A DNA stretch of 64,000 bases from Nitrosopumilaceae archaeon (GTDB lineage: Archaea; Thermoproteota; Nitrososphaeria; Nitrososphaerales; Nitrosopumilaceae): assembly GCA_965214835.1 (NCBI GenBank), contig CBDCCK010000002.1:2784001-2848000 (forward strand), in the 5' to 3' direction. Shown here in pieces: positions 6,888 through 25,343 of the stretch. The translations under genes and the position numbers were made by a program. The notes under the pieces are model-generated. The model had not been told where the DNA came from and searched no databases. It worked only from the letters and a program-made list of their open reading frames with translations. Each line of letters begins with the position of its first letter. Position 1 is the first letter of the stretch.

Positions 6888-7184
6888 ACTCTGTCCTACA
6901 CACTTGGCCTACACAGACATATTTACAGGGTTTTGGGTTTTCTTAGTTTACCATACAGCTCGATTTTTTTGCCTAACTTGGCGAATATAGAAGGATCGCG
7001 ATCGATTTCAGATCAACTCCTTGCTCCGATCTCGCGGCGTACGGGGCGGCGTCCTTTCGATGTCCATTCGGCGCGCTTGTGGCATACGGATCAGTATTGC
7101 CATCGATGCCCAACTGGTAGTTAGGTGGGCGTGACCTAATACCTTTTTACGGTCTATCCGCGTGCCCATCTGGCGGGATATCTG

Positions 7185-8269
7185 AGAAGCGATTCTTAAT
7201 TAGCAGATTTTGACCCACTTGGGCACTAATCTATGCCTGACGGATCAAAATACCTGTAAAACCATGTACAAATCATGTGTTTGATCGATAGACTGACAAA
7301 AAACCCACGGACGTTCCGGATGTTTGCAGGAATGACCGAGGCAGAGTTTGACCAGCTGTGTACCGAGGTGCAAAAGAAATTTCCAGATACCGAGAAGAAG
7401 AGGCTCTCAAGGCCCGACCGTGTGCGGGATATAGGCGCAGGCAGGCCCTTTGCCCTAGATCTGAGGAACCGCGTACTGCTGGTCTTGTTCTACTACAGGA
7501 CGTACGTCTCCCAGGACGTGGCTGGCGCCATGTTCGGTATAGGACAGGCGTCGGTCTCGCGCTCCATAAGCCTGACTGAGCCCCTGCTAAAACAATGCCT
7601 GCCGATCCCCGAGAAGATTTACAAGGACTCCAAGAGGATCTCCTCAGTCGAGGAGCTGGCCGAGATCTTCCCGGGGATGGTGTGCCTGACTGACGCCTCC
7701 GAGCAGCCCACAAACAGGCCCAAGAGAAAGGACATGGAAAAGTCGCACTATTCGGGCAAGGCAGGCACGCACACGGCCAAGGTCCAGTATACGGTCAACA
7801 TACACGGTGCCATAGTGCACAAGACCCCGCACTCGCCGGGGCGCGTAAACGACGTCAAGATATACCAGATGAAGCACCCCACATTCTGGAGCGGTGAGGA
7901 GGACGGCGAGGAGCTGCGGCACTATATGGATCGCGGATACCAGGGTGCGCAGCACATCGATGCAGGGACGAAGGTTATACTTCCAATCAAGAAGAGTCCT
8001 GGCGGCAAGCTGACCGACGATGAAAAAGAGTACAACAGAACACACTCAAAGATACGGGTGTACGTGGAGAATGGCATACGCAGGGTCAAGACATTCAAGA
8101 TAATGAGCTACAAGTACAGAAACAGGCTCAGAAAGTACGATCTGGCCAACAGTATCGTGTGCGGGCTGGTCAACCTGAGGATACTGGAACGGATAGCTGC
8201 TGTGGCCTGAAAAACACGGCAGAAAACAACTGCAACCTGCCACTCGTAATTTAATTACGGATTGCTTCT
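7185..8269 (+). mobile_element. IS5-family element (1085 bp), copy 1
   Basis: Ends AGAAGCGATTCTTAATTA / TAATTACGGATTGCTTCT; near-identical to 25579-26663 and 61855-62939; flanks CTG/CAG do not form a TSD. Confidence 0.93.
7275..8210 (+). CDS. IS5-family (DDE_Tnp_4-type) transposase
   Basis: HTH region, DASEQ, YSGK, MDRGYQG, RVYVENGIRRVK. Confidence 0.93.
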   Translation: MCLIDRLTKNPRTFRMFAGMTEAEFDQLCTEVQKKFPDTEKKRLSRPDRVRDIGAGRPFALDLRNRVLLVLFYYRTYVSQDVAGAMFGIGQASVSRSISLTEPLLKQCLPIPEKIYKDSKRISSVEELAEIFPGMVCLTDASEQPTNRPKRKDMEKSHYSGKAGTHTAKVQYTVNIHGAIVHKTPHSPGRVNDVKIYQMKHPTFWSGEEDGEELRHYMDRGYQGAQHIDAGTKVILPIKKSPGGKLTDDEKEYNRTHSKIRVYVENGIRRVKTFKIMSYKYRNRLRKYDLANSIVCGLVNLRILERIAAVA

Positions 8270-19581: not shown

Positions 19582-19828
19582 CAGTCTTCCCAGAAGTAAC
19601 CCAGAAAACGGCCCCAGATTTGAAACAAATCAAATTAGGATATCTACAGATTCGCCTGCCGCCATCTGCACAGTCATGAATCACGTACTTCTGGGAAGAC
19701 TGCTAATCAGTCTTCCCAAAAGTACCGCATCAAATCATCCTAGGCTCGAAACAATTCAGATGATGATGCCTGCAGATCCACATGTCACCTACTGCACCGC
19801 CGTGAGTCGGTTACTTCTGGGAAGACGA
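19582..19828. mobile_element. Two tandem MITE family D copies (19582-19702, 19708-19828)
   Basis: Each is bounded by CAGTCTTCCCA(G/A)AAGTA ... TACTTCTGGGAAGAC. Confidence 0.75.
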
Positions 19829-19876: not shown

Positions 19877-19967
19877 GTACGAGTTTACCACTTGGGCGTC
19901 ATTGGTGTCTGGAGCCTTCATGATCACGCCTGTCACACCGTATCTCAGGTGAGGGGTAAACTCGTAC
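19877..19967. mobile_element. MITE family B (91 bp)
   Basis: Perfect 13-bp TIR GTACGAGTTTACC / GGTAAACTCGTAC, identical to the left end of the element at 37272; flanked by ACTGA on both sides. Confidence 0.85.
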
Positions 19968-20235
19968 ACTGAGTGACATCTACGACGTGGATTTCTCTTT
20001 TCTCAACAAAAAGCGCACATCGAAGTATGACATCTTCCTCTTTGACATACACCTTGAAGCCTTCTCCACATGTAATAAAATGAAGCGATCCCATGGCTCT
20101 TGCCATGTTCCTAATGCTTTCAATCTCTTTCATGTAGATTTCAAAAGAATTAGAATCCTGTGAGTTGCGTGATCTAATCCAACTAATGACAGTTTGACTT
20201 ATTAGAGTATGCCAGCCATTTTGAGACAATTTCAA
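19945..20235 (-). CDS. Hypothetical protein, RelE-like size and pattern (putative toxin)
   Basis: 96 aa, downstream of a 43-aa partner; C-terminus extended by the MITE. Confidence 0.45.
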   Translation of the reverse strand: MKLSQNGWHTLISQTVISWIRSRNSQDSNSFEIYMKEIESIRNMARAMGSLHFITCGEGFKVYVKEEDVILRCALFVEKREIHVVDVTQCTSLPLT

Positions 20236-20236
20236 G

Positions 20237-20368
20237 TCACGAACTTAGAATATCTTTCAGGTTTCCCGTATAGTGCAATGGCGTTATGGAACCATCACGT
20301 ACCTTGGCCTTGTATGCCTTAATTGCGTCCGTATCATCCTGTGTCCATTCAAGCTTGCTAGGATTCAT
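20237..20368 (-). CDS. 43-aa protein, putative antitoxin (not in the ORF track)
   Basis: MNPSKLEWTQDDTDAIKAYKAKVRDGSITPLHYTGNLKDILSS; TTTAAATA about 25 nt upstream. Confidence 0.55.
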   Translation of the reverse strand: MNPSKLEWTQDDTDAIKAYKAKVRDGSITPLHYTGNLKDILSS

Positions 20369-20419
20369 GTTACACAGCACAAGTGCAATTATTTAAAGGT
20401 AATTATTTTAGGGGACTGG

Positions 20420-21470
20420 TGTGTTATATGAAAATTAGGTTCGTTAGTCATTGATGTCCCTCTCCATCCATTTTGGGTCTTTTTTTCTGATCGCTTCTGT
20501 AGCCTCCCTTGCCAAAAAGGCCTGCAGTGGCGTCTCACACTTGTCGATATCCAGTGCAGTGCAGCCTGCGCTCGTTATAGTACTCCACGTATGCAGCCAG
20601 GCTCTCATAGTGGTGGATTTCCTTCTCTATGCTGCCGTGCAACCGTTCCAGCTTGCCGTTGGTCTCCGGATGGTACGGCCTGGAGTTTATCAGCCCGATG
20701 CCCCGGTCCAGCAGCTCGGCCTCAAATGCAGTCGGCTTCCACGTCCCCTTTGGCATGTTCTTCTTGCTACGGCCGCCGTTGAAGCACCTGCCGTTGTCAG
20801 ACAGTATGGTAGCCGGCGTGCCAAATCTGTCTATGGCATCCCTGAGTGTTATCACCACGTTTTCTGATGTGGCCTCGGCAAACGTCCGTGCCGCCATGAT
20901 ACATCTGGATGAATCGTCCAAAAACGTGACTAATTTGAGCCCTCTCAGGCGTGGATCCTTCATATCGTGCCAGTCCACGTGCCACATTGCGTTGGAGTAC
21001 TTGCGCTCATAGCGTAGCCACTTGCGCTGTCCGGATCTTGCAGCAGACTTTGAGACCAGCTTGTTCTCACTCATTATCCTGTATACAGAGTTGTAGCTTA
21101 TATTCAATTCCTCCCTTGCACGCCTGGCCGTGCGCACCACACCGATGTCCTGCTCGGCGTACAGGCGAAGTACCGTCCGAACCTCATCGCTTGAGGGCGG
21201 CGGCGATGCTGGCCTGCCGGGACTCTTTTGCACGTGTATTACGCCGGTTCTTTCGAACTCGGCGCACAGTCTGCCCACGTACTGGGGCGTCACCTTCAGC
21301 TCCTCTGCTATTGCCTTGAGCGTCCTGCCCTTCTTACGCTGTCTTGTGGCGTATCTTATCTGTCGCTCTGTCAGTGCTTTCTTTTTCGTCGTTTTTCTTG
21401 ATCGGTAAAGGGTAAAGTATTCCTTGGCTTTTCTCAAAATCTTAGGCGAACCTAATTTCCATATAAGACA
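20420..21470 (-). mobile_element. IS481-family element; transposase 20535-21437 with a late frameshift
   Basis: TGT...ACA ends with TIR TGT(G/C)TTATATG(A/G)AAATTAGGTTCG; MWHVD, LDDSSR, LSDNG, PETNGKLER; no TSD. Confidence 0.88.
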
Positions 21471-21871
21471 ACCGAACCTGTGTCCAGATATGTGGTCTTG
21501 GCCGATGCCAGAACCAATGAAAGGTATGTGGTCACTTCCCCCTGCTGGCCAGGCGTGAAAATCATAACCCTACATGCCAATTCGTGCCTGATTGATAGGG
21601 GTAGGTGACCTCGTACAATGAAAGTATGTTTATGTCAAGTCCAGCGGTGGGGATTCCTGCAAGGACACCCTCGACACATACCCCCCCCCCCACCACAGAA
21701 TGGGTCTAGCAACGATACAGGTTTAGTCTCTTGGATCATCTTTTTTGCAAGAGCTGGAATCATAGATGCCACATACGGATGCATTCCATGAGTGGCATAA
21801 GTGGTGCTGATTTTCTTGAATTGGAAATCATCACGCAGAATAGGTCTGGCTAGTCGTGCATGTGTCGTCAT
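21471..21871 (-). pseudogene. DNA amino-methyltransferase N-terminus (poly-G frameshift, MITE insertion, truncation)
   Basis: THGMHPYVASMIP, LLDPFCGGGG; removing one G gives VCVEGVLAGIPTAGLDINILS, and removing the MITE continues LVLASAKTT. Confidence 0.8.
21524..21616. mobile_element. MITE family A (93 bp)
   Basis: TIR GTATGTGGTCAC / GTGACCTCGTAC; 8-bp TSD AATGAAAG. Confidence 0.9.
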
Positions 21872-22044
21872 TTTTCACACCCACCTTTCACCATTATTTT
21901 TTTGCCCTCAATCACAAATTGAATCGATTTGGGGTTATTAAGGAAATCTCTGATCGGTTTGGGTACTCGGCAGATTATACTATGCCTTCCATCATCTGAC
22001 AGTTTTACACAAAACCTAGTTTCGTCTTCCTTCCATCTTGTCAA
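21868..22044 (-). CDS. AbrB/MazE-like small DNA-binding protein (58 aa, TTG start; not in the ORF track)
   Basis: MTRWKEDETRFCVKLSDDGRHSIICRVPKPIRDFLNNPKSIQFVIEGKKIMVK; stop overlaps the MTase ATG (ATGA). Confidence 0.75.
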   Translation of the reverse strand: MTRWKEDETRFCVKLSDDGRHSIICRVPKPIRDFLNNPKSIQFVIEGKKIMVKGGCEK

Positions 22045-22090
22045 TAATCCATTTACGCTGACAGGTTATATTAAGCGATCGGATAACTAT

Positions 22091-22131
22091 GCATACGGAT
22101 AGCAGCAAGGATTAAATAAGCATACGGATAA
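22091..22131 (+). promoter_or_regulatory. TATA box for the tRNA (TTAAATA, 22112-22118) between two GCATACGGATA repeats
   Basis: About 25 nt upstream of tRNA G1; direct repeats at 22091 and 22120 are possible operator sites. Confidence 0.55.
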
Positions 22132-22141
22132 TATCGCGTAT

Positions 22142-22225
22142 GGCGAGGTTGCTTAGGCAGGTAGAGCGACGATCTGAAAAATCGTTGGGTGTGCACCTAC
22201 GGGGGTTCGAATCCCCCTCTCGCCG
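22142..22225 (+). tRNA. Class II (Ser-like) tRNA with GAA anticodon
   Basis: Acceptor GGCGAGG/TCTCGCC, discriminator G; D-stem GCT/AGC; anticodon stem ACGAT/ATCGT with loop CTGAAAA; variable arm TGGGT-GTGC-ACCTA; T-arm GGGGG-TTCGAAT-CCCCC. Confidence 0.9.
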
Positions 22226-23240
22226 CTTACAACATTTTCCATTATTCTCTATTTTAACTTTTGAGCGGGATCAGATATGAACGCAAGGGAAAAGAAGGCC
22301 AGACAGATCATGTCGGTGCCAAACCACGCATTCGAAACAATAGGAGAAAATACATTCAAGGTAAGGTCACAATCCGACCCATCCAAGTTCTACATAATCA
22401 CAAGAACCGGCAACGGGCTTGTCTGCGAGTGTCCAGACCACCGGATCAGAAAGGCGGACTGCAAGCACATCAAGGTCATACTGGAGTATGTCAGAAGAAA
22501 CGTGTTCGGACACGAGGGATTCAGGATAATGGAGAGGTCGAAGATCAGGCTGTGCAAGTTCTTCGATTCTGGCAACGTCATCAAGAAGGGAACGAGAAAA
22601 AACAAGAATGGCGATGTGCAGATTTTCAAGTGTACCGACTGCAACAGACGATTTACAGCAAACTTTGGCTTTGAGAAAAAACAGTTTGATGACAGAACCG
22701 TAACTGCTGCCTTGTAGATGTACTATACGGGAATGTCAGTACGGGATATCGCAGACCATTACGAGATGATGGGAATTGATGTGTGCCATAAGACCGTCTA
22801 CAACTGGATTGACGAGTACTCCAAACTCACCACACGGTACATAAACGGAATCGTCCCAAGGGTCGGCAGTTGGTTCAGGGCCGACGAGGTATGGGTAAAA
22901 ATCGCAGGAAAGCAGTGCTGTATTTTTGCATCAATGGATGATGACACACGATACTGGCTGGCCTCCGACCTTGCAGACAACAAGTTCCAGCACAATGCGG
23001 ACAGCCTACTACAGCTAACCAAGCTACAAGCTGGCAAGTCACCTAGGAACTTTATCACTGATGGCCTGCCTGCCTACATGAAATCATCCAAGAAGGTGTT
23101 TGGAAATAAGACAAACCACGTAAGGCACATCCACCTGGCTGGAAAAAGAGACCGTGACAATAACAACAAGATGGAGAGGCTCAACGGCGAGATCAGAGAC
23201 CGTGAGAAGGTGTTTCGGGGCCTCAAGAAGATGGATACTT

Positions 23241-24656
23241 CAGTACTTCCTAGATGTACTTTTGCAGACCCGACACGGCACCTCCGCTACTTTCCGCGAT
23301 CGTTTACAAACGAGTCGGCCGCATCGACAATGCACGCGACAAACAGCATCATGGTAAACCCCTTCCCTCCTGCAAATCCGTCCCACTTGGATTCCACGTC
23401 TATGAACACGGCAGTCCTCCACAGGTTGTACAGTATGACAGACATATAGAACAGCAGCAGCCTGACGACCGGGGAATTGCTGCACGTCTTGCCCATTATC
23501 CCCTTGATCACCCTGAACCCGGTCTCGATTCCCCACCGACTGCGGTACTCCTCCGGTATCTGCTCAATGACTGCCTCTGCACTTTTAGCAGACATGTTGG
23601 TGGCAAAGACCAGATACCTGTCGGCTATGGTCTCTTCTGCCTTGTCCTTCTTTGCTGCTGCCGTGCCGTCCTTTTCTACCTCGTCCTTTTCCACAATGAC
23701 TAGCCTGAATGTGGCGCTCTTGCCGTCCTTGTTGGTCATTGTATATTTTGATACCGCACCGCGTTCTCCGCGGTCATGCTCCTCTATTGCCGCCACTATC
23801 CTCCTGTTCTTGACGGCAGGCATGATGTAGCTGCCCGTGCTTGTTTCTGCAGCCCTCATGCAGTCCACGTTAAAGAACCCGCGGTCATACAGGAACGTCT
23901 TGATCCTCATCCCTGATCTGGACGCCTTGCGGATCATTTTAGGCACGAAATCGGCCAGTTTTGCCTCTTTTGGAAGCTGCAGCGAGGAAAGCACGAGGTC
24001 AGACCCGTCATCTGATCCTATTCCGTGCATGGTAATGTGCGAGAGAAACGTCGACGTGCCGTTCTTGGGCTTTGACTTTCTGGCGATATCCTCCAGGCCC
24101 TTGCCATAGTATTCCACGTCGGTAACGTCCACTGCCACGACGTCCGTGTTGTGCAGCATGCCTGACCTGCGGGCGCACCTTACCGTATGCTGCAGCATGG
24201 AGCTGCACCACTTTTGCGCATCATCCAGGCTGACGCCCCGGATCGCCTTTAGGATCCAGTCCGGACTAGGCGTACGGCAACTATACGCGCCGCCCTTGGA
24301 GGCAGCCCCGTCGTCATGCTGCTGCCTGCTGCATTTTGAGGCCCGCCTGCGAAGGTGCGTCACGGCAGATTCTGCAAACATCCTCCTCTCAGACATGAAA
24401 TATAGAACGCGCAGTGCGTCGATGTGGTCATACACTGCGTTGCGACTCTTTGAGACGGCCAGCCCGAGCTTGGGAAACCGCCGTCGCAATGTTTTAAACT
24501 GTCTCGATGTTATGTCAAACTGGTGTGCAAACACGTCGTTTTGTGTTGGTATCATGATGATGGTTGGCACACCGCCTGATCTATAGTATGATGGTCAAAA
24601 AATCTCGGCAAATTGCGTAATTATCGTGCCTGCAAAAGTACATCGAGGAACTACTG
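23241..24656 (-). mobile_element. ISH3-like element, copy 2 (1416 bp)
   Basis: Inverted copy of 16831-18246; 4-bp TSD ACTT. Confidence 0.92.
23287..24570 (-). CDS. ISH3/IS4-type transposase
   Basis: Protein identical to 16917-18200. Confidence 0.92.
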   Translation of the reverse strand: MPTIIMIPTQNDVFAHQFDITSRQFKTLRRRFPKLGLAVSKSRNAVYDHIDALRVLYFMSERRMFAESAVTHLRRRASKCSRQQHDDGAASKGGAYSCRTPSPDWILKAIRGVSLDDAQKWCSSMLQHTVRCARRSGMLHNTDVVAVDVTDVEYYGKGLEDIARKSKPKNGTSTFLSHITMHGIGSDDGSDLVLSSLQLPKEAKLADFVPKMIRKASRSGMRIKTFLYDRGFFNVDCMRAAETSTGSYIMPAVKNRRIVAAIEEHDRGERGAVSKYTMTNKDGKSATFRLVIVEKDEVEKDGTAAAKKDKAEETIADRYLVFATNMSAKSAEAVIEQIPEEYRSRWGIETGFRVIKGIMGKTCSNSPVVRLLLFYMSVILYNLWRTAVFIDVESKWDGFAGGKGFTMMLFVACIVDAADSFVNDRGK

Positions 24657-24877
24657 ACTTCCATACTTGACGGAATGAGGGTATACTATAATTTCACGAA
24701 AAAACACGGTGCACTGGACGGTCAGACCCCCGCAGAGTCGGCCCTGATAAGCGTGGACGGTACGAACAAGTGGAAAACCATAATCCAGAACGCCTCACTA
24801 AGTAAAAATTCAGCCTAGTCGTAAAAATCGAATCTGAAGAAGATCCATATTTCAGGTCTCGAAGATTACACAGAACC

Positions 24878-25343
24878 TTATTTTAGGGTCACGTGAATTC
24901 CCCGGTAGATGATTTCAATGTGCATCCCTGTCTTGTAGGTCGTGAACCCGCCTCCCGCACCAACGGAGTGAATCCTTTCTGCCCGGCTCAGATCCATTTT
25001 CAGCCACTCTGCTATCCGCCTCGGAATAAAGCAGGAGTATGTGGTCACGTCCCTTGCTAGCTAGGCACGAAAATCACAATCATGCATCTAATTCGTGCCT
25101 GACTGATGGGGGTAGTTGACCTCGTACAAGCAGGAATCTGCCCGAGTCAACCAGCCCACGTACACTCAATTCTGGATTGGTCTTGGCGTCTGCGCCTTCT
25201 GATCCCTTTCGTATGACTACTGCCACTCTTGGACGTCTTGTCAGGGTTTCCTTTCCGTCCACGCCTACAGCCCGATCGACTCGGTAGTCGAACTTCATCA
25301 CGTCTGTAGGACTGTCCCTGTCGGCCATGTCAGCAGCTCGCAT
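24878..25343 (-). pseudogene. Retropepsin-like aspartyl protease (frameshift plus MITE insertion)
   Basis: RRPRVAV...GLVDSG-(frameshift)-ADSCFIPRRIAEWL...SVGAGG. Confidence 0.7.
25037..25127. mobile_element. MITE family A (91 bp)
   Basis: GTATGTGGTCAC...TTGACCTCGTAC; 8-bp TSD AAGCAGGA. Confidence 0.9.

Follow-up and report, generated by a model that had tools for sequence, protein, structure and literature searches.

A serine-type tRNA with a phenylalanine anticodon in the intact head of a dead IS6-related archaeal cargo transposon

What keeps a tRNA whose body suggests one amino acid and whose anticodon suggests another between a predicted repressor gene and the broken transposase of a transposon? 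The question is raised by a locus in the 3.2-Mb genome, rich in insertion sequences (IS), of a Nitrosopumilaceae archaeon (GenBank assembly GCA_965214835.1), the named relatives of which are Nitrosopumilus and other Nitrosopumilaceae. The locus was analyzed within a stretch of 64,000 nucleotides (contig CBDCCK010000002.1, positions 2,784,001 to 2,848,000), called the window here, and positions given without a contig label count from its first letter. The locus proved to be a dead member of a family of IS6-related archaeal cargo transposons, with everything broken apart from the head, i.e., the AbrB-fold gene, the operator-like boxes, and the tRNA (Table 1). In related elements, the place ahead of the transposase is optional, holding an odd tRNA, a box C/D RNA, or nothing, and the head is possibly a new kind of RNA toxin module.

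The transposon family and its dead copy

The tie to IS6 is provided by the DDE core of the transposase, which matches Pfam DDE_Tnp_IS240 (PF13610) above the cut-off (E = 1.7e-10), and the same Pfam family matches 20/20 aligned family members. For the SWIM-like N terminus, a model of an intact sister (residues 1 to 78) suggests a likeness to ZSWIM8 (Z 6.2) and to the Shu1:Shu2 chain (Z 4.9); by its Atlas features it resembles SWIM clusters (0.91 to 0.92), and Pfam SWIM matches only 1/20 family members. The zinc ribbon can be recognized by its CxxC...CxxC motif, and in the locus copy it carries a Cys-to-Phe change. A Foldseek search with the transposase model returned nothing at E 0.001, the best match being the ISCth4 transposase. 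An intact family transposase has about 375 amino acids; the locus copy is inactivated by a TAG at 22715-22717 and by an IS that splits the frame after 23240, the frame resuming at 24661.

The family comprises 2,976 protein clusters at E 1e-20, and matches to the transposase were found in 72/201 genomes of the host family. In a survey of the ends of 80 entries, each with at least 2.5 kb upstream, both inverted repeats (GGTTCTG ends) were present in 49, and an 8-bp target duplication (7 or 8 of 8 bases alike) was present in 42, which represent 39 distinct elements of 1.8 to 7 kb. In a typical element, cargo is followed by a small divergent regulator, a short repeat-bearing promoter, and a leaderless transposase. 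When 50 of the 72 larger open reading frames (ORFs) carried as cargo were scanned, 25 belonged to restriction-modification, 3 to other families, and 22 matched nothing. At the right end of the locus copy, ...ACACAGAACC (to 24877) is common to dozens of ends across the genome.

These results bear out much of a preliminary description of the locus, made from the sequence alone, which had proposed (i) an IS6-type DDE transposase with additional N-terminal SWIM and zinc-ribbon domains, beginning 51 nt after the tRNA; (ii) an IS6-like right end; (iii) a distinct cargo-bearing class of IS6-related archaeal elements, now seen in the ends and duplications of sister elements with a single-transposase layout; and (iv) defense cargo. 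The definition of ends and target duplications from intact copies, which it had suggested as a check, is the survey given above. Like the long zinc-finger clades of IS6 (IS6/IS26), the family has a DDE_Tnp_IS240 core, a helix-turn-helix, GG..CTG ends of about 16 bp, and an 8-bp duplication (PMC7986276, PMC6807381; these and all further papers are cited for the parts drawn on). Unlike IS6, it has an added SWIM-like domain, and a single pair of ends encloses its cargo together with a divergent regulator, so that the IS6 trait of being short with the transposase as sole gene does not apply to elements that fit both into 1.8 to 7 kb. In the parts drawn on, the IS6 review describes zinc-finger extensions and a single passenger-carrying member, ISDsp3, the word tRNA being in neither IS6 text (PMC7986276, PMC6807381), a thaumarchaeal IS survey takes IS as one- or two-gene elements, and the terms tRNA, passenger, and SWIM do not occur in a 2026 survey of archaeal IS. 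No description of the element, the slot, or the tRNA family was found in the literature covered, mostly open-access main texts. Ahead of another family copy in this genome, a long (TGGTGTC)n repeat lies on the 5' side (G000:C2:1444700-1445090).

The head and its RNA slot

The tRNA is 84 nt long and has 7/5 acceptor/T stems, a long variable arm, and G73. The tRNA-Ser genes of the host share the long variable arm and G73, whereas its tRNA-Phe and tRNA-Leu have A73. The serine determinants are the long variable arm and G73, the anticodon being ignored, while G73 blocks the leucyl-tRNA synthetase in Haloferax and archaeal phenylalanine identity requires A73 (PMC9976931). As judged from its sequence, the locus tRNA carries the identity marks of serine with a swapped anticodon, and serylation is predicted. 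The host owns a canonical tRNA-Phe and four tRNA-Ser genes elsewhere, and the locus tRNA is surplus. The cloverleaf, compared over eight sequences, shows 94.6% pairing, and 12 of its 21 pairs have double changes (0/500 shuffles). Contigs from four sequencing runs of two studies span the head, two of them with an allele free of the miniature inverted-repeat transposable element (MITE) listed in Table 1. Among the listed sequencing runs, none with RNA data held the locus, a result that carries no information on expression.

A model built on the tRNA and its tail was run on 150 and 25 genomes and gave 49 rows, which after removal of 4 duplicates left 45 distinct matches. Seventeen are host tRNA-Ser, the nearest ordinary tRNAs among the matches (17/17), and 28 have other anticodons. 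All 28 (7 of which are training sequences of the model, and one of which has a defective 6-nt loop) carry A35 anticodons, which match codons of Phe, Leu, or Ile and fall into six kinds (GAA, GAU, UAU, CAG, GAG, and UAA), and 25 have G73. The 3' neighbor is this transposase at 10 of them and an IS1595-like one at 2. Three tRNA-bearing sister elements have both ends and perfect 8-bp duplications; since these bounded elements enclose the tRNA, it travels inside the element. Its anticodon varies from sister to sister.

Other unusual tRNAs were observed alongside this set. In three genomes (L265, L228, and L233), a GAA cassette tRNA has the same 14-nt intron at 37/38; its relative in this genome (G000:C2:702318) is intronless with a 6-nt loop. 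The L259/L266 locus (G413:C1:1696867-1698123) consists of two tandem units, in each of which a 127-amino-acid CxxC protein is encoded behind a GAU long-arm tRNA, and has no AbrB-like gene. A second family of long-arm G73 tRNAs in this genome (88 to 95 nt; GAU, CAG, or GAA anticodons) has a different tail and lies at G000:C2:1826707, 1824008, 182881, 2887469(-), 914323, and 1090322(-). Short tRNAs occur at G000:C2:2234423, 2756709, 3019690, 66617(-), and 2749120(-). In four of them an alanine-type acceptor (G3:U70) is combined with a GAA, AAG, or GAG anticodon, and the fifth is a GUC gene with a similar upstream region; each of the five has its own anticodon-arm sequence repeated about 45 nt upstream, which could be an antisense neutralizer or a recombination scar. 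A further long-arm G73 tRNA (G000:C2:148334-148418(-)), which has a CCU anticodon and AT just ahead of it, could be the host tRNA-Arg(CCU) or another odd tRNA.

Divergently from the tRNA runs the gene of the predicted repressor. Its structure model has a predicted local distance difference test (pLDDT) score of 69, and its ten structure matches are all AbrB/SpoVT/MazE/VapB-type or similar small proteins (Z 2.6 to 4.2); sequence searches of Pfam and the PDB gave no match. In the promoter region, GCATACGGATA occurs at 22091 and 22120, flanking the TATA-like box at 22112; an 11-nt repeat arose in 0/200 shuffles of the intergenic region, and measured against shuffles of the whole window the word is borderline (5/100). 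Across loci, promoter repeats exceed shuffles in 22/27 and adjoin TATA-like boxes. These repeats are predicted operators of the AbrB-fold protein. Shared promoter words follow regulator identity with rho 0.29 for the hairpin segment and 0.035 for the C-terminal half, from pairs that are not independent. A divergent AbrB-like gene, which formed no part of the search model, accompanies 19/28 non-serine tRNAs versus 0/17 host tRNA-Ser, and in the tree set it accompanies 5/5 tRNA rows versus 19/100 RNA-less rows.

A strict test of 133 non-redundant transposase leaders found a tRNA in 7, a box C/D RNA in 11, and neither in 115; on visual inspection, 22 were taken as C/D-like. A U-rich tail is common to slot RNAs, tRNA and C/D alike. 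A strict tail pattern matched only 3/401 genomes, being too narrow. On a quick and poorly resolved transposase tree of 140 residues, the slot state is scattered: the tRNA state is seen in 5 rows and takes 5 changes (4 or more of them forced), and the C/D state is seen in 15 rows and takes 12 (5 or more of them forced), while slot RNAs are missing from a 44-row clade, mostly Bathyarchaeia. L206 and L024 share the operator word of the locus and have an AbrB-like protein 72 to 74% identical to that of the locus; the slot holds a tRNA at the locus and a C/D RNA in L206 and is empty in L024. IS1595-like transposases, too, stand behind this head, in L162 (G295:C1:615038, by Pfam) and L231 (by sequence likeness). 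The slots of L003 and L065 hold degenerate tRNA-like or T-arm-only hairpins, and L045 has a UAA long-arm G73 tRNA with its own TATA-like box (7144-7230(-)), inside the element and on the opposite strand behind the transposase.

Of what the preliminary description had said about the head, the divergent AbrB-like gene coupled to a methyltransferase gene (the stop of one overlapping the start of the other, the fold being taken from weak matches) and the repeats around the TATA box were both recovered. Its view of the AbrB gene as belonging to the class stood in part: the gene is linked to the tRNA, but it is one regulator type among several (25/121 rows). The tRNA itself was thought to be integral to the class, which the 7 tRNA-bearing leaders among 133 contradict. 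The serine marks under a swapped anticodon, the exchange of the tRNA for box C/D RNAs, and the dead state of the copy had no place in that description.

Through the slot RNA runs an open frame. In the strict set it is open for at least 35 codons in 17/18 RNA-bearing leaders versus 2.2 expected, and it is open for 30 codons in 20/115 RNA-less leaders and for at least 30 codons in 11/11 strict C/D heads. Its stop lies at the transposase-start offset in 17/28 tRNA heads versus 1/17 host tRNA-Ser matches. The frame would thus fit a single transcript with coupled translation.

For the C/D class, 27 guides were scored against the rRNA and tRNA of this genome (in a previous run, 11 guides were scored against the rRNA of their own host wherever this was available), and 11/27 reached p 0.1 or better. 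Five guides pair over 10 to 12 nt at the tRNA-Asp anticodon with the fifth position on C36 (1 to 20 of 300 shuffles), and one pairs over 11 nt with the fifth position on a 23S adenosine that we take to be A2451 (1/300 shuffles). Other guides match 16S at sites that presumably lie near U1498, A520, and C970 (E. coli numbers); the match near C970 is not significant, and two U1498-type guides score slightly higher at a nearby site. The tRNA-Asp pattern is held by only 6/71 genomes and the U1498 pattern by 2/71 (controls 2 and 3), for which reason the guides are not housekeeping ones; of the six tRNA-Asp matches other than the guides' own, three are once more tail-bearing cassette RNAs. Nine C/D-bearing loci among 12 loci scanned matched no C/D family of Rfam at gathering score. 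An 11-unit tandem box C/D array in this genome (G000:C2:117200-119200; L219) has the scaffold of the slot RNAs and several of the same guides. Next to this array, an ORF may encode an actin/ParM-type ATPase.

Like archaeal box C/D small RNAs, the RNAs of the sister elements have C, D', C', and D boxes, a terminal stem, and an adjacent coding gene (PMC6009581); unlike them, they are mobile, patchy, and overlaid by a frame, yet some guides still match rRNA or tRNA, while a 5' overlap has been described as mostly abolishing C/D targeting (PMC6009581). The cutting of a functional RNA from a transposase 5' leader is known from the IS200 tnpA leader of Salmonella, the small RNA of which base pairs with mRNA and is neither a tRNA nor a guide, nor exchangeable (PMC5435999).

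Possible roles of the leader RNAs

Taken together, the guide targets, the restriction of the anticodons to A35 types (the anticodon rule), and the link to the regulator are most simply read as signs of an RNA toxin: the tRNA would be held off by the AbrB-fold repressor and would guard the element, and we consider the case for this to be evenly balanced. The proposed course of events is as follows: (i) a single leaderless transcript would start at 22140; (ii) the AbrB-fold protein would bind the boxes and repress both promoters; (iii) the tRNA would be cut out by the RNase P and RNase Z of the host and charged by its seryl-tRNA synthetase, so that serine would be inserted at UUU/UUC codons; (iv) unprocessed transcript would yield transposase by re-initiation after the short frame; and (v) once the repressor-cargo operon is lost or silenced, the toxin would be set free and would thereby guard the defense cargo, as CreTA guards CRISPR-Cas, or abort the infected cell. 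A selected function is argued for by the compensatory changes, the anticodon rule, and the link to one regulator type. Broadened to the transposons of Nitrosopumilaceae, this would make the portable head a new kind of toxin-antitoxin system, with a repressor that has reprogrammable operators, an exchangeable RNA weapon that turns host enzymes against translation (a serine tRNA misreading Phe/Leu/Ile codons, or a C/D guide by which fibrillarin is directed to a tRNA anticodon, to A2451, or to the decoding region), and a short frame coupling it to the transposase, a proposal that we make tentatively and with somewhat more doubt than confidence.

There are precedents for parts of this scheme. Allo-tRNAs of Acidobacteria and others resemble the locus tRNA and its relatives in marks of serine identity, Leu/Ile-type anticodons, and a link to a transposon ORF (PMC5389517); those of serine identity with Leu anticodons inserted serine and killed E. 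coli, one of them overlaps a transposon-related ORF, and allo-tRNAs have further been linked to toxin-antitoxin loci, some being toxic in E. coli (PMC5389517). They differ in being defined by 8/4 or 9/3 stems, whereas the locus tRNA is 7/5, archaeal, and fixed in a slot of the transposase leader. CreTA likewise has a small RNA toxin that is transcriptionally repressed and proposed to guard a defense system; CreT is repressed by Cascade with the CreA guide, whereas here the repressor would be an AbrB-fold protein and the putative toxin a whole tRNA or a C/D guide (PMC9458426). No CreA-like CRISPR-repeat guide was noticed in the head region, no dedicated search having been made. If the toxin reading is true, archaeal mobile DNA would offer a natural case of mistranslation used on purpose and of guided rRNA methylation used to do harm, and the abundance of anticodon-swapped tRNAs in these genomes would be explained. 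Even without toxicity, a large cargo-carrying relative of IS6 moves restriction-modification genes among ammonia oxidizers.

Several observations weigh against a toxin. The RNA is dispensable, as the 115 leaders without one indicate, and 9/28 tRNAs have no AbrB-like neighbor (one has a zinc-finger gene, and neither was seen at 8), and some of these look intact; the AbrB type is found in only 1/15 C/D rows, and the fold match itself is weak (Z up to 4.2). Of the guides, 16/27 were no better than shuffles (p > 0.1), and the combined guide p of 1e-4 is too strong, because the guides are related. Part of the frame is inherited, given that the ATG at -2 is present in 11/17 host tRNA-Ser matches and 14/17 are open for at least 30 codons; because host tRNA-Ser so often share the ATG and an open body, only the run of the frame through the tail is specific. 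A toxin cotranscribed with the transposase would be expected to poison a new host on arrival, and an antitoxin that is only a repressor would not kill after clean loss of the whole element. Most UAU allo-tRNAs, in addition, were inactive in translation (Mukai et al., PMC5389517).

The alternative that survives best, although we think it unlikely, is that the RNA acts mainly in cis as a brake: tRNA processing, or L7Ae on the kink-turn of a C/D RNA, would remove or hide the leader start codon, and transposase would be produced only while processing by the host falls behind. RNase P cleavage would take the AU off the leader AUG, the frame behaves as such coupling would have it in tRNA and strict C/D heads alike, and a single slot accommodates two unrelated RNA classes. 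Such a brake needs neither the A35 rule, kept by 28/28, nor guides that match tRNA-Asp and 23S; the C/D scaffold and its guides recur in the 11-unit array, the units of which are not each followed by such a transposase, and one element has such a tRNA behind its transposase on the opposite strand. A brake in cis and the toxin reading are compatible.

The RNAs could also be mild or neutral hitchhikers in transposon heads, the frame serving only to keep the transposase translatable. This would agree with the scatter of slot states on the transposase tree, with the occurrence of the same head on IS1595-like transposases, and with the further odd tRNA families elsewhere in this genome, but the same three features that argue for a selected function make it distinctly improbable.

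Protection of the host has been considered as well, with the tRNA acting against anticodon nucleases as a decoy or as a spare, and the guides methylating sites that rival toxins would cut. Ribose methylation blocks RNase cleavage, the family cargo is rich in defense genes, and the tRNA-Asp anticodon is targeted by five guides; yet a tRNA serving as a spare should retain the identity that matches its anticodon, whereas the locus tRNA has G73 and a long arm, and a methylated 2'-OH at A2451, a group essential to peptide bond formation (PMC5829716), would be expected to disable the ribosome. We give this explanation little credence.

Many mobile elements integrate at tRNA genes. That the tRNA is such an ordinary host gene used as an insertion site, the case that the preliminary description had named against itself, was rejected and is next to inconceivable, since three sister elements enclose the tRNA between both ends and 8-bp duplications, the canonical tRNA-Phe and tRNA-Ser lie elsewhere in the host, and the anticodon differs between sisters.

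Left side, insertions, and flanks of the locus

Table 1. Positions of the head, the surrounding element, and later insertions within the window
Feature	Position	Strand	Remarks
Claimed left target duplication TTATTTTA	20403..20410		Family inverted repeat does not follow; doubtful
IS481-type insertion (ORF 20535-21437)	20420..21470	-	Own target duplication missing; marks rearranged left side; 3 full copies
Methyltransferase-like cargo remnant, N-terminal	21471..21871	-	HPY and LLDPFCGGG motifs; weak Pfam match (E 0.11)
MITE	21524..21616		8-bp duplication AATGAAAG; 119 genome matches of at least 80 nt; missing from contigs of two runs
AbrB/MazE-fold gene, 58 amino acids, predicted repressor	21868..22044	-	Intact; stop overlaps methyltransferase-like start
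Back-to-back promoter region, 65 bp	22066..22130		TATA-like boxes 22066-22074 and 22112-22119
Operator-like boxes	22075-22085 (degenerate), 22091-22101, 22120-22130		Within promoter region
46-codon open frame	22140..22280	+	ATG 2 nt 5' of tRNA; through tRNA; stop on transposase ATGA
tRNA, serine-type body with phenylalanine anticodon	22142..22225	+	Rfam 54 bits; GAA anticodon 22176-22178
U-rich tail with conserved TATWTTAAYTTTYGAG motif	22226..22276	+	Motif in both tRNA and C/D cassettes
Broken IS6-related transposase (SWIM-like domain, zinc ribbon, helix-turn-helix, DDE)	22277..24818	+	D-D-E motifs at 22877, 23054, and 23168
ISH3/IS4-like insertion (ORF 23287-24570, DDE_Tnp_1)	23241..24656	-	4-bp ACTT duplication; about 1.4 kb
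Right terminal inverted repeat of family	24862..24877		Followed by TTATTTTA at 24878-24885

The left end fared differently from the right. The preliminary description had placed it at 20411, behind TTATTTTA as a candidate 8-bp target duplication, and this had to be given up: family left ends consist of the duplication followed by GGTTCTG, whereas here TTATTTTA at 20403 is directly followed by GGGGACTGG. The 16-nt family end in left-facing orientation has no copy at up to 3 mismatches within the whole window; a relocated TTATTTTA+GGTTCTG end and a partner for the IS481 flanks were both sought, and neither was found. A search for an empty site found none, the 481 bp to the left of the IS481-type element matching no relative beyond 28 to 32 nt in 31 genomes. 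The IS481-type element lacks the 14- to 16-bp duplication present at two other copies, which indicates that the left part of the locus has been rearranged. Room for a left-end remnant is given by TTATTTTAGGG, an 11-mer with only 3 occurrences in the genome, 2 of them at the two claimed duplication sites, and we rate a true remnant of the duplication in TTATTTTA on the left as rather doubtful.

The methyltransferase remnant is broken in three ways, by a frameshift at an 11-C run (21681-21691), by the MITE, and by the IS481-type element, and its remainder was found neither in the genome nor in the loci. In the contig of one sequencing run, the 11-C run is shorter by one C, with which the frame would be restored; the tract is possibly phase variable. 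The IS that interrupts the transposase has 27 near-identical full-length copies in the genome.

Beyond the IS481-type element, a low-GC pair of frameshifted ORFs (19945-20368, minus strand), which had no match in Pfam or among 30 relatives, may be cargo or flank. Further to the left, at 19582-19826, two 119-nt direct repeats with internal inverted repeats of 17 to 18 nt and high read depth are probably MITE-like.

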